A stretch of 17,220 nt of DNA, taken from the IMG/VR virus record IMGVR_UViG_2609460354_000003; one strand, written 5' to 3'. Below, one piece after another: positions 2,488 through 15,662 of the stretch. The position numbers and the translations under genes were made by a program. Source of the stretch: a virus (taxonomy: Duplodnaviria; Heunggongvirae; Uroviricota; Caudoviricetes). The notes under the pieces were generated by a model. That model was not told the origin of the DNA. It was given only the letters and a program-made list of their open reading frames with translations, and did not search any database. Each line of letters opens with the position of its first letter. Position 1 is the first letter of the stretch.

Positions 2488-2643
2488 TTACTCCTCAGGT
2501 TCGTAAGCTGTGAAGACAGCGACCTCCGTCTGGCCGGTTCGGATTCGTACCTCGCAGAGGTCTTTCCTCGTTACCAGTGCCGTCACTATGACGGTTAAAC
2601 AGATGACGATCAGGGCGATTAACATCGCCTTTTGCTGCTTCAT
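2488..2643 (-). CDS. hokD: Hok/Gef-family type I toxin (HokD/RelF-like), 51 aa
   Basis: Hand translation from ATG 2643: MKQQKAMLIALIVICLTVIVTALVTRKDLCEVRIRTGQTEVAVFTAYEPEE, stop TAA at 2488-2490. AAGGAGAAG SD upstream. Below the 60-aa cutoff of the ORF track. Matches HokD/RelF as recalled. Confidence 0.85.
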   Translation of the reverse strand: MKQQKAMLIALIVICLTVIVTALVTRKDLCEVRIRTGQTEVAVFTAYEPEE

Positions 2644-2901
2644 AGCCTGCTTCTCCTTGACCTTTCGGTCCGTAAGAGGCTAATCTCTATGTGTCGCATA
2701 GATATGGCCTCAGATTAATGTTAAGCGTCTTGCAGGACGCGTAATGTTAACTGGGGCTTTTCTCTATCTGCCTTTTGGTGTTCATGCCTGAGACAGATAG
2801 CCTCAAGCACCCGCAGTCATTCTACTTAACTAAGATTTCCCCGCAAACCGTTTTTGTCCGGCACAGTAAATATCCAACTAAACCAATGGCGTTCGCTGTA
2901 T

Positions 2902-7055: not shown

Positions 7056-7273
7056 TTCGAACCTCTCTGTTTACTGATAAGTTCCAGATCCTCCTGGCAA
7101 CTTGCACAAGTCCGACAACCCTGAACGGCCAGGCGTCTTCGTTCATCTATCGGATCGCCACACTCACAACAATGAGTGGCAGATATAGCCTGGTGGTTCA
7201 GGCGGCGCATTTTTATTGCTGTATTGCGCTGTAATTCTTCGATTTCTGATGCTGAATCAATGATGTCTGCCAT
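7052..7273 (-). CDS. TraR/DksA-family C4 zinc-finger protein (73 aa)
   Basis: CCECGDPIDERRR...CRTCASC four-Cys motif in a short phage protein. Confidence 0.7.
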   Translation of the reverse strand: MADIIDSASEIEELQRNTAIKMRRLNHQAISATHCCECGDPIDERRRLAVQGCRTCASCQEDLELISKQRGSK

Positions 7274-7323
7274 CTTCCATTAATCCCTGAATTGTTGGTT
7301 AATACGCTTGAGGATGAATGCGA

Positions 7324-7349
7324 ACAATAAAAAAGGAGCCTGTAGCTCC
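7324..7349 (-). terminator. Rho-independent terminator-like hairpin within the early-left operon
   Basis: On the minus strand, GGAGC-tacag-GCTCC is followed by TTTTTTATTG, just after the stop of gene 7372..7587. Confidence 0.55.
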
Positions 7350-7371
7350 CTGATGATTTTGCTTTTCATGT

Positions 7372-7587
7372 TCACCGTTCCTTAAAGACGCCGTTTAACA
7401 TGCCGATCGCCAGGCTTAAATGAGTCGGTGTGAATCCCATCAGCGTTACCGTTTCGCGGTGCTTCTTTAGTACGCTACGGCAAATGTCATCGACGTTTTT
7501 ATCCGGAAACTGCTGTCTGGCTTTTTTGATTTCAGAATTAGCCTGACGGGCAATGCTGCGAAGGGCGTTTTCCTGCTGAGGTGTCAT
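7372..7587 (-). CDS. Hypothetical protein (71 aa from ATG 7587; ORF extends to 7686)
   Basis: ORF-track frame. Internal ATG 7587 avoids overlap with the methylase gene. No known motif. Confidence 0.4.
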   Translation of the reverse strand: MTPQQENALRSIARQANSEIKKARQQFPDKNVDDICRSVLKKHRETVTLMGFTPTHLSLAIGMLNGVFKER

Positions 7588-7663
7588 TGAACAAGTCCCA
7601 TGTCGGCAAGCATAAGCACACAGAATATGAAGCCCGCTGCCAGAAAAATGCATTCCGTGGTTG

Positions 7664-8221
7664 TCATGCAGCCTCCCGACGGGCAAGAATCCTTGAGCCG
7701 AACGCCATCAACTCTCCACGATCAACGGTCGTAAAGTGGCAGTGTGTACGGGGGTATGGGTGCCAGATAATGAGCATCGAGCCTTTATTATTTCCACTGA
7801 CGGGTTTCTCAGTGAGTGGGTTAATAAATGCCAGTCGTCCTGCCGTGATGAATCTGACCTCACTGGCGGTTTGTATCGCTTCATGAAACCATCCGACAGA
7901 TGTGTCAGCAGGCAATAACATTACACATCCCACACTACTGAATTTGTTTTCAGTGGCTGCCTTTTTCACAAAAGGGGAAATATTGCTGTATGGTGGATTC
8001 AACCAGACATAACCAGAGGCATATCCCATTGCTTCAGGCCATGAAGTGGTTAATGTGTTCTGCTCCTGTGAGATAAAAAGCCGACATAGTCGGTTTTTTT
8101 CGCTGGCGGCAGCATCAAGTTGAAAAACGAACTCTGCATTAAGCGCAGCAAAAATCTCTGGTGGTGTGCGCCAGCTGTCGCGATGTTCGGCAGGAGTATT
8201 GCTTCCGGTGAAATCAGTCAT
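7664..8221 (-). CDS. Phage DNA N6-adenine methyltransferase (Dam-like, orphan)
   Basis: WRTPPEIF...FQLDAAAS and NPPY motifs. No restriction endonuclease candidate nearby. Confidence 0.85.
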   Translation of the reverse strand: MTDFTGSNTPAEHRDSWRTPPEIFAALNAEFVFQLDAAASEKNRLCRLFISQEQNTLTTSWPEAMGYASGYVWLNPPYSNISPFVKKAATENKFSSVGCVMLLPADTSVGWFHEAIQTASEVRFITAGRLAFINPLTEKPVSGNNKGSMLIIWHPYPRTHCHFTTVDRGELMAFGSRILARREAA

Positions 8222-8375
8222 ACAGCCCCCGTTTATTATTTATCGCCTCAGCCAGCCGCTGTGCTTTCAGTGGATTTCTGATAACAGAAAGGCCGGGAAA
8301 TACCCAGCCTCGCTTTGTAACGGAGTAGATGAAAGTGATCGCGCCTACCCGGATATTATCGTGAGGATGCGTCAT
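8214..8375 (-). CDS. Small hypothetical ORF (53 aa) coupled between exo and the methyltransferase
   Basis: ATG 8375 overlaps exo stop (ATGA); its TGA overlaps the methylase ATG. Translation [53 protein letters not shown]. Below ORF-track cutoff. Confidence 0.3.
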
Positions 8376-9052
8376 CGCCATTGCTCCCCAAATACAAAAC
8401 CAATTTCAGCCAGTGCCACGTCCATTTTTTCGATGAACTCCGGCACCATCTCGTCAAAATTCGCCATGTACTTTTCATCCCGCTCAACCACGACATAATG
8501 CAGGCCTTCACGCTTCATACGCGGGTCATAGTTGGCAAAGTACCAGGCATCTTTTCGCGTCACCCACATGCTGTACTGCACCTGGGCCATGTAAGCCGAC
8601 TTTATGGCCTCGAAACCACCGAGCCGGAACTTCATGAAATCCCGGGAGGTAAACGGGCATTTCAGTTCAAGGCCATTGCCGTCACTGCATAAACCATCGG
8701 GAGAGCAGGCGGTGCGCATACTTTCGTCGCGATAGATGATCGGGGATTCAATAACATTTACGCCGGAAGTGAACTCAAACAGGGTTCTGGCGTCGTTCTC
8801 GTACTGTTTTCCCCAGGCCAGTGCTTTAGCGTTAACTTCCGGAGCCACACCGGTGCAAACCTCGGCAAGCAGGGTGTGGAAGTAGGACATTTTCATGTCA
8901 GGCCACTTCTTTCCTGAGCGGGGCTTTGCTATCACGTTGTGAACTTCTGAAGCGGTGATGACGCCGAGCCGTAATTTGTGCCACGCATCATCCCCCTGTT
9001 CGACAGCTCTCACGTCGATCCCGGTACGCTGCAGGATAATGTCCGGTGTCAT
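8372..9052 (-). CDS. exo: Lambda-type exonuclease (Red alpha)
   Basis: 226 aa beginning [37 protein letters not shown], matching lambda Exo as recalled. Sits directly downstream of bet. Confidence 0.93.
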
Positions 9053-9834
9053 GCTGCCACCTTCTGCTCAGTGGCTTTTTGTTTCAGGAATCCAAGAGCT
9101 TTCACTGCTTCGGCCTGTGTCAGTTCTGACGATGCACGAATGTCGCGGCGAAATATCTGGGAACAGAGCGGCAATAAGTCGTCATCCCATGTTTTATCCA
9201 GGGCGATCAGCAGAGTGTTAATCTCCTGCATGGTTTCATCGTTAACCGGAGTGATGTCGCGTTCCGGCTGACGTTCTGCAGTGTATGCGGTATTTTCGAC
9301 AATGCGCTCGGCTTCATCCTTGTCATAGATACCCGCAAATCCGAAGGCCAGACGGGCACACTGAATCATGGCTTTATGCCGTAACATCCGTTTGGGATGC
9401 GACTGCCACGGCCCCGTAATTTCTCTGCCTTCGCGGGTTTTGAATGGTTCGCGGCGGCATTCATCCATCCACTCGGTAACGCAGATCGGATGATTGCGGT
9501 CCTTGCGGTAAATCCGGCATGTACAGGATTCATTGTCCTGCTCAAAGTCCATGCCATCAAACTGCTGGTTTTCATTGATGATGCGGGACCAGCCATCAAC
9601 GCCCACCACCGGAACGATGCCATTCTGCTTATCAGGAAAGGCGTAAATTTCTTTCGTCCATGGATTAAGGCCGTACTGGTTGGCAACGATCAGTAATGCG
9701 ATGAACTGCGCATCGCTGGCATCACCTTTAAATGCTGTCTGGCGAAGAGTGGTGATCAGTTCCTGTGGGTCGACAGAATCCATGCCGACACGTTCAGCCA
9801 GCTTCCCAGCCAGCGTTGCGAGTGCTGTACTCAT
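9049..9834 (-). CDS. bet: Lambda-type Red beta single-strand annealing protein
   Basis: 261 aa beginning [38 protein letters not shown], near-identical to lambda Bet as recalled. Confidence 0.95.
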
Positions 9835-9839
9835 CCGTT

Positions 9840-10136
9840 TTATACCTCTGAATCAATATCAACCTGATGGTGAGCAATGGTTTCAACCATGTACCGGATG
9901 TGTTCTGCCATGCGCTCCTGAAACTCAACATCGTCATCAAACGCACGGGTAATGGCTTTTTTGCTGGCCCCGTGGCGTTGCAAATGATCGATGCATAGCG
10001 ATTCAAACAGGTGCTGGGGCAGGCCTTTTTCCATGTCGTCTGCCAGTTCTGCCTCTTTCTCTTCACGGGCGATCTGCTGGTAGTGACGCGCCCAGCTCTG
10101 AGCCTCAAGACGATCCTGAATGTAATAAGCGTTCAT
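9840..10136 (-). CDS. gam: Gam RecBCD inhibitor (short GamS-like form)
   Basis: 98 aa [60 protein letters not shown]... AGGAGG SD. In-frame upstream sequence has stops, so no GamL extension. Confidence 0.93.
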
Positions 10137-10211
10137 GGCTGACCTCCTGAAAATGGCTGTGAAAATATCGCCCGCGAAATGCCAGGCTGATTAGGAAAAC
10201 AGGAAAGGGGA

Positions 10212-10622
10212 TTAGTGATTTAGGCCGTTGCCGCGTCCGTCGAGAAAAACTTCCACGAGCAAATCACGGGTATAAGTGCGCTCGATGCCGCGATGCAGAT
10301 ATAGCCGTCCGCGTAAATTAGCTGATGCAGTCCAGGTACCATCTTTGTGTTTGACCAGCATTCCTGGCATGACCGCACCGCGATTAACGGTCTGCGTTCC
10401 GTAATGTTGATGAACCATAAAAACTCCTGCCCGTAAGCTGGGCTGCTGAACATATATAGACTTCTGCGCGTATTCAGGCGGTGGATGGCCGCCGGTTGTC
10501 ATAACTAAGCCGCCTCGTTGAAGCGACTGAGGTATGAAGTGTTGAGTTGATTTCAGCTGGTCACACCGACGTTCACGCGTCCGCTTCACCCCTCGCACTC
10601 CCCGGAGCCTGCTGAAATTCAA
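10212..10622 (-). CDS. Hypothetical protein in the N position (first gene after PL); possible N-like antiterminator if started at upstream TTG/GTG, otherwise 96 aa from ATG 10502
   Basis: With the TTG start the N-terminus is Arg-rich ([15 protein letters not shown]), reminiscent of N arginine-rich motifs. First ATG is at 10502 with a GAGG SD. No clear boxA/boxB seen. Confidence 0.35.
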
Positions 10623-10689
10623 GCTGCGGATCTAAGCGGTCATCGCAACGGTGAATCAGGTGGTTGCCGTATCGTTGTGTTGTTGCGAC

Positions 10690-10745
10690 ATGGTGATAAT
10701 AGCTATTGCTATTGATGATATCAATACTTATTGCTATTGCTAGAT
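10690..10745 (-). promoter_or_regulatory. OL/PL-like region: leftward promoter with repressor operator repeats
   Basis: Minus strand -35 TTGATA (plus 10717-10722), 17-nt spacer, -10 TATTAT (plus 10694-10699). Repeated TTGCTATTG-type motifs at about 10699-10712 and 10727-10741 also occur in OR. Confidence 0.5.
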
Positions 10746-10870
10746 GTGTTTTGATATTAAATATTTGATAGCAAAAAGAATTAATTTTGTGACTTGCATC
10801 GCATAGCGATAACTGAAGCGGGGTTGTGGTGGTTTTTTGAACGGTGTGTGCGATGAGGGGAGGGCAAAAG

Positions 10871-10892
10871 AAAACCCGGCACGGTGGCCGGG
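10871..10892 (-). terminator. Rho-independent terminator ending the cI-side accessory locus
   Basis: Minus strand CCCGGC-cac...-GCCGGG hairpin followed by TTTTCTTTTG, right after the stop of the 283-aa gene. Confidence 0.6.
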
Positions 10893-10899
10893 TCTGAAC

Positions 10900-11751
10900 T
10901 TACTGAATTTTCCTGAAAATCACAAGAGGAGTCATTCCGTATGCGGTGCTACTGCGGCCTGCTAATTCTTTTATCCCAGAAAGCATTTCTGTTATGCCAT
11001 CTTTCAAAGGGTTTGACGGGAACACAGACATATCGAAAAGTTCTTGGTCATATTCAGGAAGGGCATCGATAAAACCAAGTACGTACCATTCGCCTGGAAT
11101 ACTCCCACCATATTTTAGAACCATATCGTCTGGATTAATGGTGAGGTAATCACGATTAATAGTCATCCAAATGGTTTGACCAAAATCATTAATAAAATCA
11201 ACCTGCAATGTGTTCGGGACAATATTAAGTACTTCTTTCATCATGCCAAAAGTGACACCGGGCGAGACGGGGATTTCGTCAATACTATCATTCGTTTTTT
11301 TTGCTTTTGGCGGTAGCTTGGAGCGTTCTGCCTTTAGCATTTTTGCTACAAACGGGACGCTTTTTTGAAACATGGAAATATCAAAAATACGAACATGGCC
11401 TTTAGATAAAACAGTACTCCCAAGTCTTTCACCATTAAGTTCTGTTTTTATTAGATCATTTTCAGAAAGTTTATCTAAGAGGTTAATAGGAAGCGTCCAT
11501 GAAGCATCATAGCTTTTTTCATGGGTGTAATTGATAGTTTCCTCAACACCAAGTTTTGACTTAATGATTTTAATGTCAAAGCCGGCATCACTTACTGATT
11601 TGTCAACTTCAGCTGTTACCTGTCTGATAGATGTTATTACACCAGGCCCATGCATCTGTGCCAAGAGCGATGATGCCCGCTTGTTATCAACATATAGAAA
11701 ATCATACAATGAATCGGTGGTTTGTGATTCTTGCGCCGCGGATACGGTCAT
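10900..11751 (-). CDS. Unknown 283-aa protein in the cI-downstream (rex-like) position
   Basis: Complete ORF with AAGGAAGAG SD 7 nt before ATG 11751. AT-rich relative to neighbours. Same strand as cI, followed by a terminator. No motif recognised. Confidence 0.7.
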   Translation of the reverse strand: MTVSAAQESQTTDSLYDFLYVDNKRASSLLAQMHGPGVITSIRQVTAEVDKSVSDAGFDIKIIKSKLGVEETINYTHEKSYDASWTLPINLLDKLSENDLIKTELNGERLGSTVLSKGHVRIFDISMFQKSVPFVAKMLKAERSKLPPKAKKTNDSIDEIPVSPGVTFGMMKEVLNIVPNTLQVDFINDFGQTIWMTINRDYLTINPDDMVLKYGGSIPGEWYVLGFIDALPEYDQELFDMSVFPSNPLKDGITEMLSGIKELAGRSSTAYGMTPLVIFRKIQ

Positions 11752-12057
11752 TCTTTATCTCTTCCTTCTTTTCGGCAATTTCATTTTGTTTTTTCTTTAT
11801 TTCGTCAATAACTTCCTGAACCTCTGCATCAGTGGCCCTGGGGGGTTTAGATTCAATAATTTTTAATAATTTGCGAATCATGACGAAATCTCTTGAAAAT
11901 ATGCCTTGGTTAAATTATGCACTCACACGGAGGCGATATCAACAGGGCATAAAATGCAATCATAAAAAACACATAAAATTCAAAGCATTAATAAATTAAA
12001 GGGCTGAGGTTTAACTCGTCTGTAATGGCCTTCTAAGGCTAAAATATGAGCATTAAA

Positions 12058-12750
12058 TCAACCATGCTTCCTGTACGTCTGCGGCATGCTCCCGATGACT
12101 TTCCCGAAAATGAATACCCGGTTCATCTCGTCTTTCTCGATCGGGTCCCACGGTGAGTAACTCTTGTTATCAGAGATAACGAGCAGCTTATCCTTCATCA
12201 TTTGCAGGCGCTTTACATGGGCTGTGTCGTCATACAGAAACGCATAGATACCATCACCGTCGAAAGATTTAACCGTGATATCAACGAACAGCAGATCACC
12301 TGGTTCGATCGTTCCTGACATGCTGTCACCGCGTACGTTAATAATGCGGATATTTTCTGCCTTCCTACCATCGAACATGTGACGAGCATCGTCAAACGAG
12401 TACTCAACCGAACGTAGAACTTCTACAAACTCACGGTTGATGACTCCCGGCCCGGCACTGACTTCTATATCAAGAACGTCAATTTTGAAGTATTTGGAAT
12501 GGCTGACAGCAGGCTTCCCTGATTGTTGACCGTCATTTCTCATCGGGCCTATGCCTGATGAGAGCCATTCTGTTCGAACACCCAATGCATTAGCTATTTC
12601 AACAATTTTTGTTGAGCCGCGCGCGTTGCCGCTTGTCAGTCTCCAGATTGTGGGTTGAGCTACGCCAGACGCCTTTGCAAGAGCGCCTTGAGACATTCCA
12701 GATTGTTCCATCGCTAGGTTTAAGCGATCAGCAAGAGTTTCTTTTTTCAT
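12058..12750 (-). CDS. cI: CI-type prophage repressor (N-terminal HTH, C-terminal S24 LexA-like autopeptidase)
   Basis: HTH segment SQGALAKASGVAQPTIWRL; S24 features GDSMSGTIEPGD and a downstream Lys (HVKRL). Start set at ATG 12750 because the TTG at 12786 falls in the -35 of the predicted promoter. Confidence 0.88.
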   Translation of the reverse strand: MKKETLADRLNLAMEQSGMSQGALAKASGVAQPTIWRLTSGNARGSTKIVEIANALGVRTEWLSSGIGPMRNDGQQSGKPAVSHSKYFKIDVLDIEVSAGPGVINREFVEVLRSVEYSFDDARHMFDGRKAENIRIINVRGDSMSGTIEPGDLLFVDITVKSFDGDGIYAFLYDDTAHVKRLQMMKDKLLVISDNKSYSPWDPIEKDEMNRVFIFGKVIGSMPQTYRKHG

Positions 12751-12860
12751 AAGTTTTAATTTATACGCTTGCGTATTGATGGTCAAAACACGTTTTGCTA
12801 TTGCTTGGATTAATACGCATTGCTATTATTCATTCATTGCAATACCAATAGGAATTGATA
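12751..12860. promoter_or_regulatory. OR-like divergent promoter/operator region (PRM-like leftward, PR-like rightward)
   Basis: Minus strand TTGACC (12781-12786), 15-16 nt spacer, TATAAA (12760-12765), ending 8-9 nt before the cI ATG, implying a leaderless or near-leaderless cI mRNA. Plus strand TTGCTT (12801-12806), 17 nt, TATTAT (12824-12829). Three ATTGCTATT/ATTGCAAT operator-like motifs between 12796 and 12845. Confidence 0.6.
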
Positions 12861-13088
12861 ATGACAAATCAAACCATTCAACTCGCAATCAGTATTACAG
12901 GTAGTCAAAAACGACTGGCAGATCTATGCGGTGTAGCCCAACCCACAGTTTGGCGTTGGCTACACGGTGGCGGAATTGATGCCCGCTATGTAATGAAAAT
13001 TGTCTCAGCCACTGGTGGAAAGATTAAACCAGCAGATATTCGTCCCGACCTCGCACCATTGTTTAACGCGAGTAATTCTGCCGCCTAA
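12861..13088 (+). CDS. cro: Cro-like HTH regulator (75 aa)
   Basis: ATG 12861 with AGGAA SD. HTH segment QKRLADLCGVAQPTVWRWL. Divergent from cI across the operator region. Confidence 0.7.
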   Translation: MTNQTIQLAISITGSQKRLADLCGVAQPTVWRWLHGGGIDARYVMKIVSATGGKIKPADIRPDLAPLFNASNSAA

Positions 13089-13112
13089 ACTGCGGCGTTA
13101 ACTGATAAGGCA

Positions 13113-13658
13113 ATGACTATGCAACCACTTACATACCAACAGACTAGCGGATTTAGCCCGACTGCGGTGATAAATCGTTCTCAAACAAAACAGGTGCCAG
13201 GCCACGAAAAAATCCGTGATGCCGTCCGCGCCTGGTCGGCTGCAGATAATCAGGATGTTGTTGCCGCACTCATTGTGAATGAGTATCGGGAGCAGGGCGG
13301 CGGCACCATCGATTTCCCTGATGATGTCAGCCGTGCACGCCAGAAGCTGTTCCGCTTCCTCGATAACAAATTCGATTCTGAAAAATACCGAAATAACGTG
13401 CGTGAACTGACCCCGGCAATTCTGGCGGTACTACCGCTGGAATATCGCGGTTACCTGGTTGAGCAGGATAGCTTCATGACTCGGTTGGCTGAAATGGAAA
13501 AGGAACTCAGTGAGGCAAAACAGGCTGTCATTCTCAACGCACCACGCCACCAGAAACTGAAGGAGATGAGTGAAGGCATTGTGTCGATGTTTCGTGTGGA
13601 CCCGGACCTGGCTGGTCCATTGATGGCGATGGTCACCACCATGCTGGGGGCAATATGA
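13113..13658 (+). CDS. CII-position regulatory protein (YdaT/CII-like, putative)
   Basis: 181-aa ORF between cro and O; start may instead be ATG 13119 (better SD spacing). Family assignment from memory, not computed. Confidence 0.45.
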   Translation: MTMQPLTYQQTSGFSPTAVINRSQTKQVPGHEKIRDAVRAWSAADNQDVVAALIVNEYREQGGGTIDFPDDVSRARQKLFRFLDNKFDSEKYRNNVRELTPAILAVLPLEYRGYLVEQDSFMTRLAEMEKELSEAKQAVILNAPRHQKLKEMSEGIVSMFRVDPDLAGPLMAMVTTMLGAI

Positions 13659-13744
13659 CAGGTTCAGAAATGGCGAAAGCCGGTCTGCGCGAACAGAACC
13701 GACTTTCAGGTGCAAATCGTAACACACTCATTGCGGGAGGAATT

Positions 13745-14674
13745 ATGGCAAACACTGCTGAGATATTCAATTTTCCAGTGCCGGATGCGGCACAAAAGGA
13801 GCCGCGCGTGGCAGATCTCGATGATGGTTATACGCGCATTGCAAATGAGTTGCTGGAAGCTGTGATGCTGGCCGGATTAACACAGCACCAGCTTCTGGTC
13901 TTCCTGGCTGTCATGCGCAAAACATATGGCTTTAATAAAAAACTGGATTGGGTGAGCAACGAGCAACTGTCCGAATTGACCGGGATATTGCCGCACAAGT
14001 GTTCTGCTGCAAAAAGTGTTCTGGTAAAGCGTGGGATTTTGATTCAGAGCGGGCGGAATATCGGTATTAATAATGTGGTCAGTGAATGGGCAACATTACC
14101 CGAATCAGGTAAGAAAAATAAAGTTTACCTGAAAGAGGTAAATTTACCTGAATCAGGTAAGAAAAGTTTACCCAAATCAGGTAAAGGCGTTTACCCGAAT
14201 CAGGTAAACACAAAAGACAAACTAACAAAAGACAATATAAAACCTTTTTCGTCCGAGAATTCTGGCGAATCCTCTGACCAACCAGAAAACGATCTTCCTG
14301 TGGTGAAACCAGATGCTGCAATTCAGAGCGGCAGCAAGTGGGGGACAGCAGAAGACCTGACCGCCGCAGAGTGGATGTTTGACATGGTGAAGACCATCGC
14401 GCCCTCAGCCAGAAAACCGAATTTTGCAGGGTGGGCTAACGATATCCGCCTGATGCGTGAACGTGACGGACGTAACCACCGCGACATGTGCGTGCTGTTC
14501 CGCTGGGCATGCCAGGACAACTTCTGGTCCGGTAACGTGCTGAGTCCGGCCAAACTCCGCGACAAGTGGACCCAGCTCGAAATCAACCGAAACAAGCAAC
14601 AGGCTGGCGTGACAGCCGGCAAACCAAAACTCGACCTGACGAACACTGACTGGATTTACGGGGTGGATTTATGA
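13745..14674 (+). CDS. O: Replication initiator O (divergent N-terminal iteron-binding domain, lambda-like C-terminal P-interaction domain)
   Basis: ATG 13745 preceded by GGGAGG. C-terminal half (SGESSDQPENDLPVVKPDAAIQSGSKWGTAEDLTAAEWMFDMVKTIAPSARKPNFAGWANDIRLMRERDGRNHRDMC...) matches lambda O as recalled. N-terminal domain differs. An upstream in-frame ATG at 13655 is an alternative start. Confidence 0.88.
   Translation: MANTAEIFNFPVPDAAQKEPRVADLDDGYTRIANELLEAVMLAGLTQHQLLVFLAVMRKTYGFNKKLDWVSNEQLSELTGILPHKCSAAKSVLVKRGILIQSGRNIGINNVVSEWATLPESGKKNKVYLKEVNLPESGKKSLPKSGKGVYPNQVNTKDKLTKDNIKPFSSENSGESSDQPENDLPVVKPDAAIQSGSKWGTAEDLTAAEWMFDMVKTIAPSARKPNFAGWANDIRLMRERDGRNHRDMCVLFRWACQDNFWSGNVLSPAKLRDKWTQLEINRNKQQAGVTAGKPKLDLTNTDWIYGVDL
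14096..14208. repeat. Origin of replication: five 18-bp iterons inside the O gene, followed by an AT-rich stretch
   Basis: Iterons TTACC(C/T)(G/A)A(A/T)(T/A)(C/G)AGGTAA(G/A) at 14096, 14125, 14144, 14168, 14191. AT-rich 14209-14250. Same architecture as lambda ori. Confidence 0.8.
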
Positions 14675-15372
14675 AAAACATCGCCGCACAGATGATTAAC
14701 TTTGACCGTGAGCAGATGCGCCGGATCGCCAACAACATGCCGGAACAGTACGAAGAAAAGCCGCAGGTACAGCAGATAGCGCAGATCATCAACGGTGTGT
14801 TCAGCCAGTTACTGGCAACTTTCCCGGCGAGCCTGGCTAACCGTGACCAGAACGAACTGAACGAAATCCGCCGCCAGTGGGTTCTGGCTTTTCGGGAAAA
14901 CGGGATCACCACAATGGAACAGGTTAACGCAGGAATGCGCGTAGCCCGTCGACAGAATCGACCATTTCTGCCATCACCTGGGCAGTTTGTTGCATGGTGC
15001 CGGGAAGAAGCATCCGTTATCGCCGGACTGCCAAACGTCAGCGAGCTGGTTGATATGGTTTACGAGTATTGCCGGAAGCGTGGCCTGTATCCGGATGCAG
15101 AGTCTTATCCGTGGAAATCAAACGCGCACTACTGGCTGGTTACCAACCTGTACCAGAACATGCGGGCCAATGCGCTGACTGACGCGGAATTACGGCGTAA
15201 GGCTGCCGATGAGCTGTCCTGTATGACCGCACGAATTAACCGTGGTGAGGCTATACCTGAACCAGTAAAACAACTTCCTGTCATGGGCGGTAGACCTCTA
15301 AATCGTGCACAGGCTCTGGCGAAGATCGCAGAAATCAAAGCGAAGTTCGGACTGAAAGGAGCAAGTGTATGA
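14671..15372 (+). CDS. P: Replication protein P (DnaB helicase loader)
   Basis: 233 aa MKNIAAQMINFDREQMRRIANNMPEQYEEKPQVQQIAQIINGVFSQLLATFPASLANRDQNE..., near-identical to lambda P as recalled. ATGA overlap with O stop. Confidence 0.95.
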   Translation: MKNIAAQMINFDREQMRRIANNMPEQYEEKPQVQQIAQIINGVFSQLLATFPASLANRDQNELNEIRRQWVLAFRENGITTMEQVNAGMRVARRQNRPFLPSPGQFVAWCREEASVIAGLPNVSELVDMVYEYCRKRGLYPDAESYPWKSNAHYWLVTNLYQNMRANALTDAELRRKAADELSCMTARINRGEAIPEPVKQLPVMGGRPLNRAQALAKIAEIKAKFGLKGASV

Positions 15373-15662
15373 CGGGAAAAGAAGCAATTATTCATTACCT
15401 GGGGACGCATAAGAGCTTCTGTGCGCAGGACGTAGCTGCGGTAACAGGCGCAACAGTAACCAGCATAAATCAGGCTGCGGCTAAAATGGCGCGGACAGGA
15501 ATCTTAGTCATTGATGGTAAGGTCTGGCGAACGGTGTATTACCGGTTCGCTACCAGGGAAGAACGGGAAGGAAAGGTGAGTACGAATCTGATTTTCAAGG
15601 AGTGTCGCCAGAGTGCCGCGATGAAACGGGTGTTGGCGGTATATGGGAGGACTACAGCATAA
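15369..15662 (+). CDS. ren: Ren protein
   Basis: 97 aa MTGKEAIIHYLGTHKSFCAQDVAAVTGATVTSINQAAAKMAR... matches lambda Ren as recalled. ATGA overlap with P stop. Confidence 0.9.
   Translation: MTGKEAIIHYLGTHKSFCAQDVAAVTGATVTSINQAAAKMARTGILVIDGKVWRTVYYRFATREEREGKVSTNLIFKECRQSAAMKRVLAVYGRTTA

Follow-up and report, generated by a model that had tools for sequence, protein, structure and literature searches.

A Kil-family gene and a conserved leader RNA with predicted structure occupy the N position of a lambdoid phage early-left operon

RESULTS AND DISCUSSION

Gene content of the early-left region

The 17,220 nucleotides analyzed here (hereafter the window) represent the early region of a lambdoid phage or prophage closely related to the Escherichia phages 4A7, Lambda_4C10, Perceval, and PhiR30_1 (genus Bievrevirus), with 96-98% identity over positions 7078-15644. 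The minus strand carries, in order, a CI-like repressor gene (12058-12786), a cargo gene for a 283-aa protein (10900-11751) with its own terminator at 10895-10872, the promoter pL, the leader/kil region, gam (9840-10136), bet, exo, and the distal genes, while the plus strand encodes a Cro-like protein, a phi80-type CII of 181 aa, and then O and P. The early-left promoter proposed in the initial annotation is present as a sigma-70-like TTGATA-17-TATTAT at 10724-10696 on the minus strand (10/12 matches in the promoter scan), and, judging from its position, transcription probably starts near 10689-10691. A terminator had also been proposed within the operon, and a hairpin followed by U6 was confirmed at 7351-7333 (minus strand; dG -10.2 kcal/mol, z -2.8), upstream of the distal pL genes, along with a second terminator-like hairpin just after exo at 8311-8289 (minus strand; dG -17.6 kcal/mol, z -3.9). 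The stretch from pL to kil-gam-bet-exo has no predicted terminator, and expression of these proximal genes would therefore not require the RNA described below.

The interval that separates the repressor gene from pL, corresponding to rexAB in lambda, looks like a hotspot for defense or accessory genes, always with the same terminator at its end. The cargo differs from one relative to the next (window versus L004, L006-L010, and L001): the gene in the window, on the minus strand, matches phrog_9699, to which no function is assigned, and relatives carry ImmA/IrrE plus DUF4411, a Ser/Thr kinase plus a PP2C phosphatase, SIR2, DUF6932, or a transmembrane protein.

The open reading frame at the N position

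As the initial annotation stated, a single open reading frame (ORF) lies between pL and gam (10212-10622, minus strand; 136 aa from a TTG codon), and it encodes the arginine-rich string KRTRERR upstream of its first in-frame ATG, at 10502. It had been proposed on this basis that the ORF encodes an N-like antiterminator translated from a TTG or GTG codon, with KRTRERR as the RNA-binding motif and a divergent nut site. The gene itself is, however, already known, as it is kil, encoding a 68-aa Kil/KilR-family FtsZ inhibitor (10212-10418, minus strand) from an ATG at 10418 that is indicated by profile matches, RefSeq, and aligned starts. The suggested homology search against antiterminators returned no match in Pfam and only Kil in PHROGs, with no N family: residues 60-136 of the long ORF, and only these, match phrog_294, "Kil protein for bacterial septation inhibition" (E 2.4e-38), a known nonregulatory family of the kind that the initial annotation itself had set against its N-like reading. 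Positions 1-70 of the 73 in the NCBIfam model NF008465 (FtsZ inhibitor, the Rac KilR model) align with residues 69-136 of the long form, which are residues 1-68 of the short form, at 63 bits and E 1.8e-17; since this score is below the 92-bit cut-off, the window protein is placed in a sister subfamily of KilR. All E. coli relatives fetched carry the same 207-nt coding sequence in RefSeq, annotated as "phage encoded cell division inhibitor protein." The Kil proteins of phi80 and HK225, to which the window protein is 42% and 85% identical, respectively, begin at an aligned methionine, and it is on these two rows that the conclusions from the alignment (A2), which also includes Rac KilR, are based. 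With phi80 Kil, HK225 Kil, and Rac KilR, the window protein shares its length, its start, and its place just upstream of gam, and the 68-aa form matches the profile across its full length (family size, about 68-73 aa). A Shine-Dalgarno sequence, CAGGAG, is found at 10429-10424, five bases upstream of the ATG. From the family annotation, the product would be expected to inhibit FtsZ ring formation. The Kil assignment concerns the gene itself and has no bearing on the leader that precedes it.

The 136-codon frame was rejected as a single gene because it is not conserved. In at least 33 close relatives, the frame stops at "...QHFIP*"; about a dozen others have a frameshift, among them E. coli EC77 with its 37-nt tandem duplication; and in all of the divergent types, stop codons interrupt it within or right behind the RGVRGV segment. 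Despite the broken frame, the leader nucleotides are near-invariant across three immunity (operator) types, and KRTRERR (10586-10566) coincides with an RNA hairpin, P2 (10584-10565), read as codons. The N-like reading can draw on the presence of KRTRERR in frame in the window and on the nature of P2, a GNRA-capped hairpin of the kind bound by arginine-rich peptides, but it is opposed by the interruption of the frame in relatives that keep the nucleotides, by family matches that begin only at residue 69 of the 136-aa form, by the 68-aa RefSeq call, and by the lack of an N family match, a boxA, or a second site at pR. Neither the Pfam search with the ORF nor PHROG scans of the 20 other ORFs in the window found an N family, no N-terminal arginine-rich protein is encoded among the window ORFs, and the curated genome of Perceval has Q as its only annotated antiterminator and no N. 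We therefore regard an N-like protein, as initially proposed, as extremely improbable and are close to certain that the ORF consists of kil and a noncoding structured leader. The ORF at the N position is two different things sharing one frame.

The leader upstream of the kil ATG is about 270 nt long. Its first ~150 nt, at the start of the pL transcript (10690-10542), are the conserved RNA, and the remainder (10419-10541, minus strand) is a kil-module leader composed of a hairpin at 10536-10500 (dG -13.8, z -4.3) that ends at ATG 10502, this upstream ATG, and the kil Shine-Dalgarno sequence. The kil-module leader is common to HK225 and phi80, where it follows N and tL1A. The frame that opens at the upstream ATG, MTTGGHPPP, with a poly-proline stretch, is encoded by near-identical nucleotides (AUGACAACCGGCGGCCAUCCACCG) ahead of kil in four phages or prophages: the window (10419-10502, minus strand), phi80 (L011, about 8380-8445, minus strand), an Enterobacter prophage (L046, from 1482), and a Trabulsiella prophage (L051, about 2000). 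In the window, it continues in frame into kil, and it may represent a regulatory leader peptide or RNA for kil. The duplication in E. coli EC77 (L006, about 1990-2030, equivalent to about 10425-10465 of the window) falls within the stretch from the upstream ATG to the kil start; it shifts the long frame and leaves the 68-aa kil coding sequence intact.

Structure of the conserved leader RNA

The core of the leader RNA (10542-10644, minus strand) is the single significant match in the window to a covariance model of the family (R1; 119 bits, E 2e-24), the next best having an E value of 2.2. As read from the sequence, it is preceded by a probable 5'-terminal hairpin, P0 (10643-10690), in which UCGCAAC (10688-10682) would pair with GUUGCGA (10649-10643), and analogues of P0 with compensatory changes, not formally counted, sit ahead of ACCGCUUAGA in types C and D, two of the sequence types described below. 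The core comprises, from 5' to 3' on the minus strand, the strand ACCGCUUAGA (10631-10640), invariant in all types; the hairpin P1 (10601-10630; UCCG.AGCUUG/CAGGCU.CGGG) with an 8-nt loop, AAUUUCAG; an invariant G-rich joining strand, GAGUGCGAGGGGUG (10587-10600); the hairpin P2 (10565-10584) with the GNRA tetraloop GUGA at 10576-10573; and invariant GUGACCA followed by GCUGAAAU (together 10550-10564), the latter complementary to the P1 loop. All types, A to H, share ACCGCUUAGA, the variable hairpin P1, and (C)GAG(U/C)GCGAGGGGUG; in types A to F, these are followed by a short linker, a P2 capped by GUGA, GAGA, GGAA, or GCGA, and GUGACCA, while types G and H differ in the 3' half.

Support for the two hairpins comes from comparison. 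In an alignment made with MAFFT, without fitting to the model, 86% of cells across 27 distinct sequences are paired, a value reached by 0 of 500 shuffles and compared with at most 41% in slid controls. With 38 distinct sequences aligned to the model, the figure is 90.2%, against 70.3% in shuffles (0/500 reach it), and 13 of the 16 pairs are changed on both sides (slid controls, at most 46%). By hairpin, 86.7% of cells are paired in P1, with both-side changes in 8 of its 10 pairs, and 95.9% in P2, with such changes in 5 of 6. As many of the sequences are closely related, including near-identical E. coli copies, these cell counts overstate the number of independent events, which is better represented by the roughly eight independent types. 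RNAalifold recovers P1 and P2 independently and gives an overall fold of two extended stem-loops joined by three bases, with closing helices formed by CGC (in ACCGCUUAGA) and GCG (in the G-rich strand) around P1 and by GGU and ACC around P2; the bases concerned are invariant and so offer no covariation by which their pairing could be tested. The single sequence folded by itself has no unusual energy (z +0.47), and the case for structure therefore rests on comparison. That the folded strand is the pL-sense strand follows from the G-U pairs and GNRA loops, which make sense only there. The P1 loop is complementary to the bases that follow GUGACCA in types A/B, C, E, and F, by way of different sequences, but not in type D; cognate pairs exceed noncognate pairs only modestly, and a pseudoknot or an alternative pairing is possible, with moderate support. 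Taken together, these comparisons of sequence establish that the leader region is a noncoding, structured RNA.

The near-invariance of the leader within E. coli might also be explained at the level of DNA, either as a protein-binding or recombination site or through hitchhiking with the kil-red module, as the recent spread of a mosaic module could produce such uniformity with no function for the RNA. Compensatory changes, strand-specific G-U pairs, and GNRA loops over about eight types and four genera speak against this, as does the occurrence of the RNA without kil, and we consider such an explanation highly improbable.

Distribution and variants of the RNA

Relatives were collected by searching 45 kil loci from different species with the 157-nt leader in nhmmer and by pattern scans of viral contigs, which gave 119 loci and then further ones. 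The nhmmer search recovered two prophages with diverged copies, one from Enterobacter intestinihominis (L046) and one from Trabulsiella (L051), and both copies contain ACCGCUUAGA without this having been a constraint of the search. In all, there are about eight sequence types, A to H, across four genera, with the RNA found in E. coli, Enterobacter, Trabulsiella, and Edwardsiella prophages. A 500-nt region of the window matches 2,229 of 5,426 complete E. coli genomes, and in 2,033 of these the match covers at least 80% of the region. A type C copy lies right after a c2-type repressor gene in Edwardsiella tarda pFL6-60, a 44-kb element that was deposited as a plasmid and carries a Cro gene. In the phage collection, the RNA occurs in about 16 records and is annotated in none; an over-long kil coding sequence runs across it in many phage records, such as the 139-aa "Kil" of Perceval, and several of the 16 carry either such a "Kil" or a hypothetical coding sequence at this place. 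These over-extended kil annotations should be corrected.

The position of the RNA is consistent across types. In nearly all of them, ACCGCUUAGA lies 17-65 nt downstream of the end of a sigma-70-like promoter, and the promoter sequence itself varies by immunity type, whereas the leader 3' of pL is conserved. There is exactly one copy per locus, at pL only, and neither blastn-short nor the covariance model found a second copy near pR. The downstream genes vary by type, indicating that the RNA serves the start of the operon rather than kil; some copies occur without kil. No conserved partner gene adjoining the RNA was found across types.

Several variants and more distant sequences were noted during these searches. 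In types B and D (L112, about 10375-10420; L182, minus strand; L184), the RNA is followed by a strong Shine-Dalgarno sequence and a three-codon mini-ORF (MKH* or MHN*), then by a hairpin, GCGGA(C/U)AGACCGC, with a 5-nt loop, and by more conserved-looking noncoding sequence before the first long ORF. Diverged environmental relatives (L222, 7237-7354, minus strand; L193/L194/L197; L198) have GC contents of 0.55-0.69, with L193/L194/L197 and L222 being the GC-rich ones, and score 20-35 bits with the model; they keep ACCGCUUAGA, P1, and CGAGUGC(GAGGGGUG), with a different or expanded 3' half, and suggest that the family may extend beyond the Enterobacterales. The scan of metagenomes used an 18-base pattern that is too short for that collection, so that almost all matches arose by chance; the exceptions were L233, a genuine type B copy, and L222, a weak GC-rich relative scoring 20 bits. 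Among otherwise chance matches, from soil metagenomes (L212, L231, L235, L265, L270, L272, L294, L309, and L310), a variable sequence, ...GUCUACCGCUUAGAAUACUCGCCAGUAACAC...GCGAGGGGAAGCAAGGUACGUGGCAGG..., recurs in which GCGAG could pair with CUCGC, and this may be an unrelated conserved element.

The slot shared with putL and nutL-N

The pL transcripts of the type B/B' prophages L084 and L046 open with about 55 nt, CCAUCGAAACGAAACAUCGACAGCUGAGCGAAGUUAGCCAGCGGCGAAGUGGA, that are identical in phi80, HK639, and CobraSix. What follows differs: in phi80 it is the nutL boxA, a boxB-like core, and gene N; in HK639 and CobraSix, an annotated putL-like antiterminator RNA; and in L084 and L046, the present leader RNA. 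On the 3' side, L084/L046 and HK639 reconverge on UUACCAGCAGCUCUUUGCGAGGGGCUGACGG, and in the window the junction between the RNA and the kil-module leader, GUUAUGACAACCGGCGGCCAUCCACCG, corresponds to the place of N and tL1A in phi80. As far as sequence can establish it, the leader RNA is positionally interchangeable with put and nutL-N cassettes. This exchange argues for an equivalent function, although it is no proof of one.

Our covariance model of put recovers all known put sites, including the untrained phiEt88 putR (55 bits), and places put upstream of kil in five further species; among 87 loci, put and the present RNA never occur in one locus. HK639 (L205) and CobraSix (L204), which share the phi80-type CII architecture with the window, have only putL within loci that span cro/cII, and none at pR. 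PhiEt88 (L203) has both putL and putR, the latter at 2698-2764 and outside the training set of the model. The annotated N of phi80 (L011, 8495-8791, minus strand; 98 aa, MIDDIKRIDSMINALRNMKQ...) has no N-terminal arginine-rich motif. HK225 (L013) has a phi80-type nutL leader followed by a different, 70-aa protein with a basic KKRQKPRKQ stretch (836-1048, gp40).

Comparison with known antitermination systems

Compared with put of HK022, and especially with the putL of HK639 and CobraSix, the leader RNA has much in common: it is promoter-proximal in the pL leader with no N gene and no cognate phage protein, its size and drawing as two stem-loops are comparable to the roughly 70-100 nt of put, drawn as two stem-loops with internal loops, and, like the single putL of HK639 and CobraSix, it is present in one copy, at pL only, between the same flanks. 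It differs from put in its conserved strands, its GNRA tetraloop, and its possible loop-tail pairing, with no similarity in sequence or by model, and antitermination activity and dependence on the zinc-binding domain of the RNA polymerase beta' subunit would be attributed to it only by analogy. Membership in the put family, with the consensus GAACGGC ... GGCGGGUUCAGGAUGAACGGCAAU and two stems, was rejected, as the put model scores at most 7.3 bits in the window, L046, and L051 and the reverse covariance search was also empty. A local resemblance between CGG|GAGCGCGGCGGGU of HK022 putL and CGGG|GAGUGCGAGGGGU is not kept in other put sequences and was treated as coincidence.

The likeness to lambda N/nut, for which phi80 N/nutL is the nearest case, is one of place, the RNA heading the pL operon before kil-gam-bet-exo and the internal terminators. 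In contrast to that system, the window lacks an N gene, a boxA, and a site at pR, and its arginine-rich string lies outside any conserved frame. The absence of boxA claimed in the initial annotation was borne out, in that strings resembling boxA (CGCUCUUA / UGCUCUUUAACAA), which in a nut site has a boxB hairpin close behind it, occur at chance level in the window and none are found in the pL and pR leaders; the nearest such string, CGCUUAGA, is about 50 nt away from P2. Identity with a nut site was rejected for this reason and because the RNA is single-copy rather than present in both the pL and pR transcripts. A gathering-threshold scan of the window with Rfam 15 matched only sok, and a scan of 10400-10760 at E values up to 10 gave only weak, wrong-strand matches. 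A tRNA- or tmRNA-like reading of GUGACCA was discarded, as ARAGORN finds nothing. The EAR RNA of Bacillus and the boxB-boxA-boxC leaders of rrn operons are structured elements in the leaders of long, terminator-containing operons, and the present RNA likewise is structured and heads a long operon with terminators, but it has neither an Rfam match nor a boxA. The literature consulted, of partial coverage and including searches with the motif strings, held no description of the RNA.

A possible role in early-left gene expression

Of the two alternatives left by the initial annotation, an N-like protein or antitermination by different means, only the second agrees with the data, in that there is no N and a structured RNA fills the putL/nutL-N slot; its function is an inference. 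The reading that we favor, about which our confidence is evenly balanced, is that the leader RNA may be a cis-acting antiterminator for the pL operon, alone or with host factors. P0, ACCGCUUAGA, P1, GAGUGCGAGGGGUG, the GNRA-capped P2, and GUGACCA would fold within the first ~150 nt of the pL transcript, and the nascent RNA would then act in cis on its own RNA polymerase, either by itself or with host elongation factors. Polymerase modified in this manner would pass the terminators at 8311-8289 and 7351-7333 and withstand Rho, allowing the distal early-left genes to be expressed without an N protein, much as with the put RNA of HK022 and HK639 but through an unrelated sequence and fold.

Two other roles for the RNA have to be weighed against this. 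It could be a nut-like loading site for an unrecognized phage protein encoded elsewhere in the genome, with protein-dependent antitermination, as might be expected from a slot held in common with the phi80 nutL and from a GNRA hairpin with conserved single strands that resembles a protein-binding site. No gene is conserved beside the RNA, however, as the downstream genes differ by type and relatives carry different cargo upstream, between cI and pL, and there is no N-terminal arginine-rich protein in the window and only one site per phage; we think a loading site unlikely. A posttranscriptional leader, whether a stabilizer against RNases, a regulator of translation or decay of the pL messages, or a released small RNA or sponge, is a more serious possibility, although still a doubtful one. 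The RNA is at the 5' end of the transcript and opens with a terminal hairpin, the loop-tail complementarity could switch it between two folds, and the proximal genes need no read-through, all of which would suit such a role. Against it, the RNA is precisely exchanged with put and nutL-N cassettes, no consistent Shine-Dalgarno sequence or terminator follows it across types, and hence there is no expression platform, and it is conserved whatever gene lies downstream.

To our knowledge, RNA-only processive antitermination is known from very few systems, of which put is the only one from a phage with a solved mechanism. If the leader RNA does act in cis as we favor, it might define a third class besides put and EAR, with no structural relation to either, in which the nascent RNA alone makes E. 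coli RNA polymerase resistant to terminators, a proposal that we hold somewhat more tentatively. Found in roughly 40% of complete E. coli genomes, such a class would be the commonest early-antitermination device of the lambdoid prophages of this species, and it would have been overlooked because the RNA is missing from all of the classical model phages. It would also explain how common E. coli prophages without N (DLP12-like, Bievrevirus) express their recombination, excision, and accessory genes, and, with a fold unrelated to that of put in the slot that put occupies elsewhere, RNAs that reprogram the same polymerase could be compared directly.

Other features of the early-left operon

Two further features of the window lie downstream of exo. 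The 185-aa ORF at 7664-8221 (minus strand), between exo and the terminator at 7351-7333, matches only positions 51-232 of the 345-position DNA methyltransferase profile phrog_111 and may encode a truncated methylase. In the distal early-left region, the sok match is full-length (2641-2812, minus strand; Rfam RF01794, 106.7 bits against a gathering score of 59) and adjoins a 51-codon hok-like ORF (2488-2643, minus strand), the two together being, by their sequences, a type I toxin-antitoxin module.
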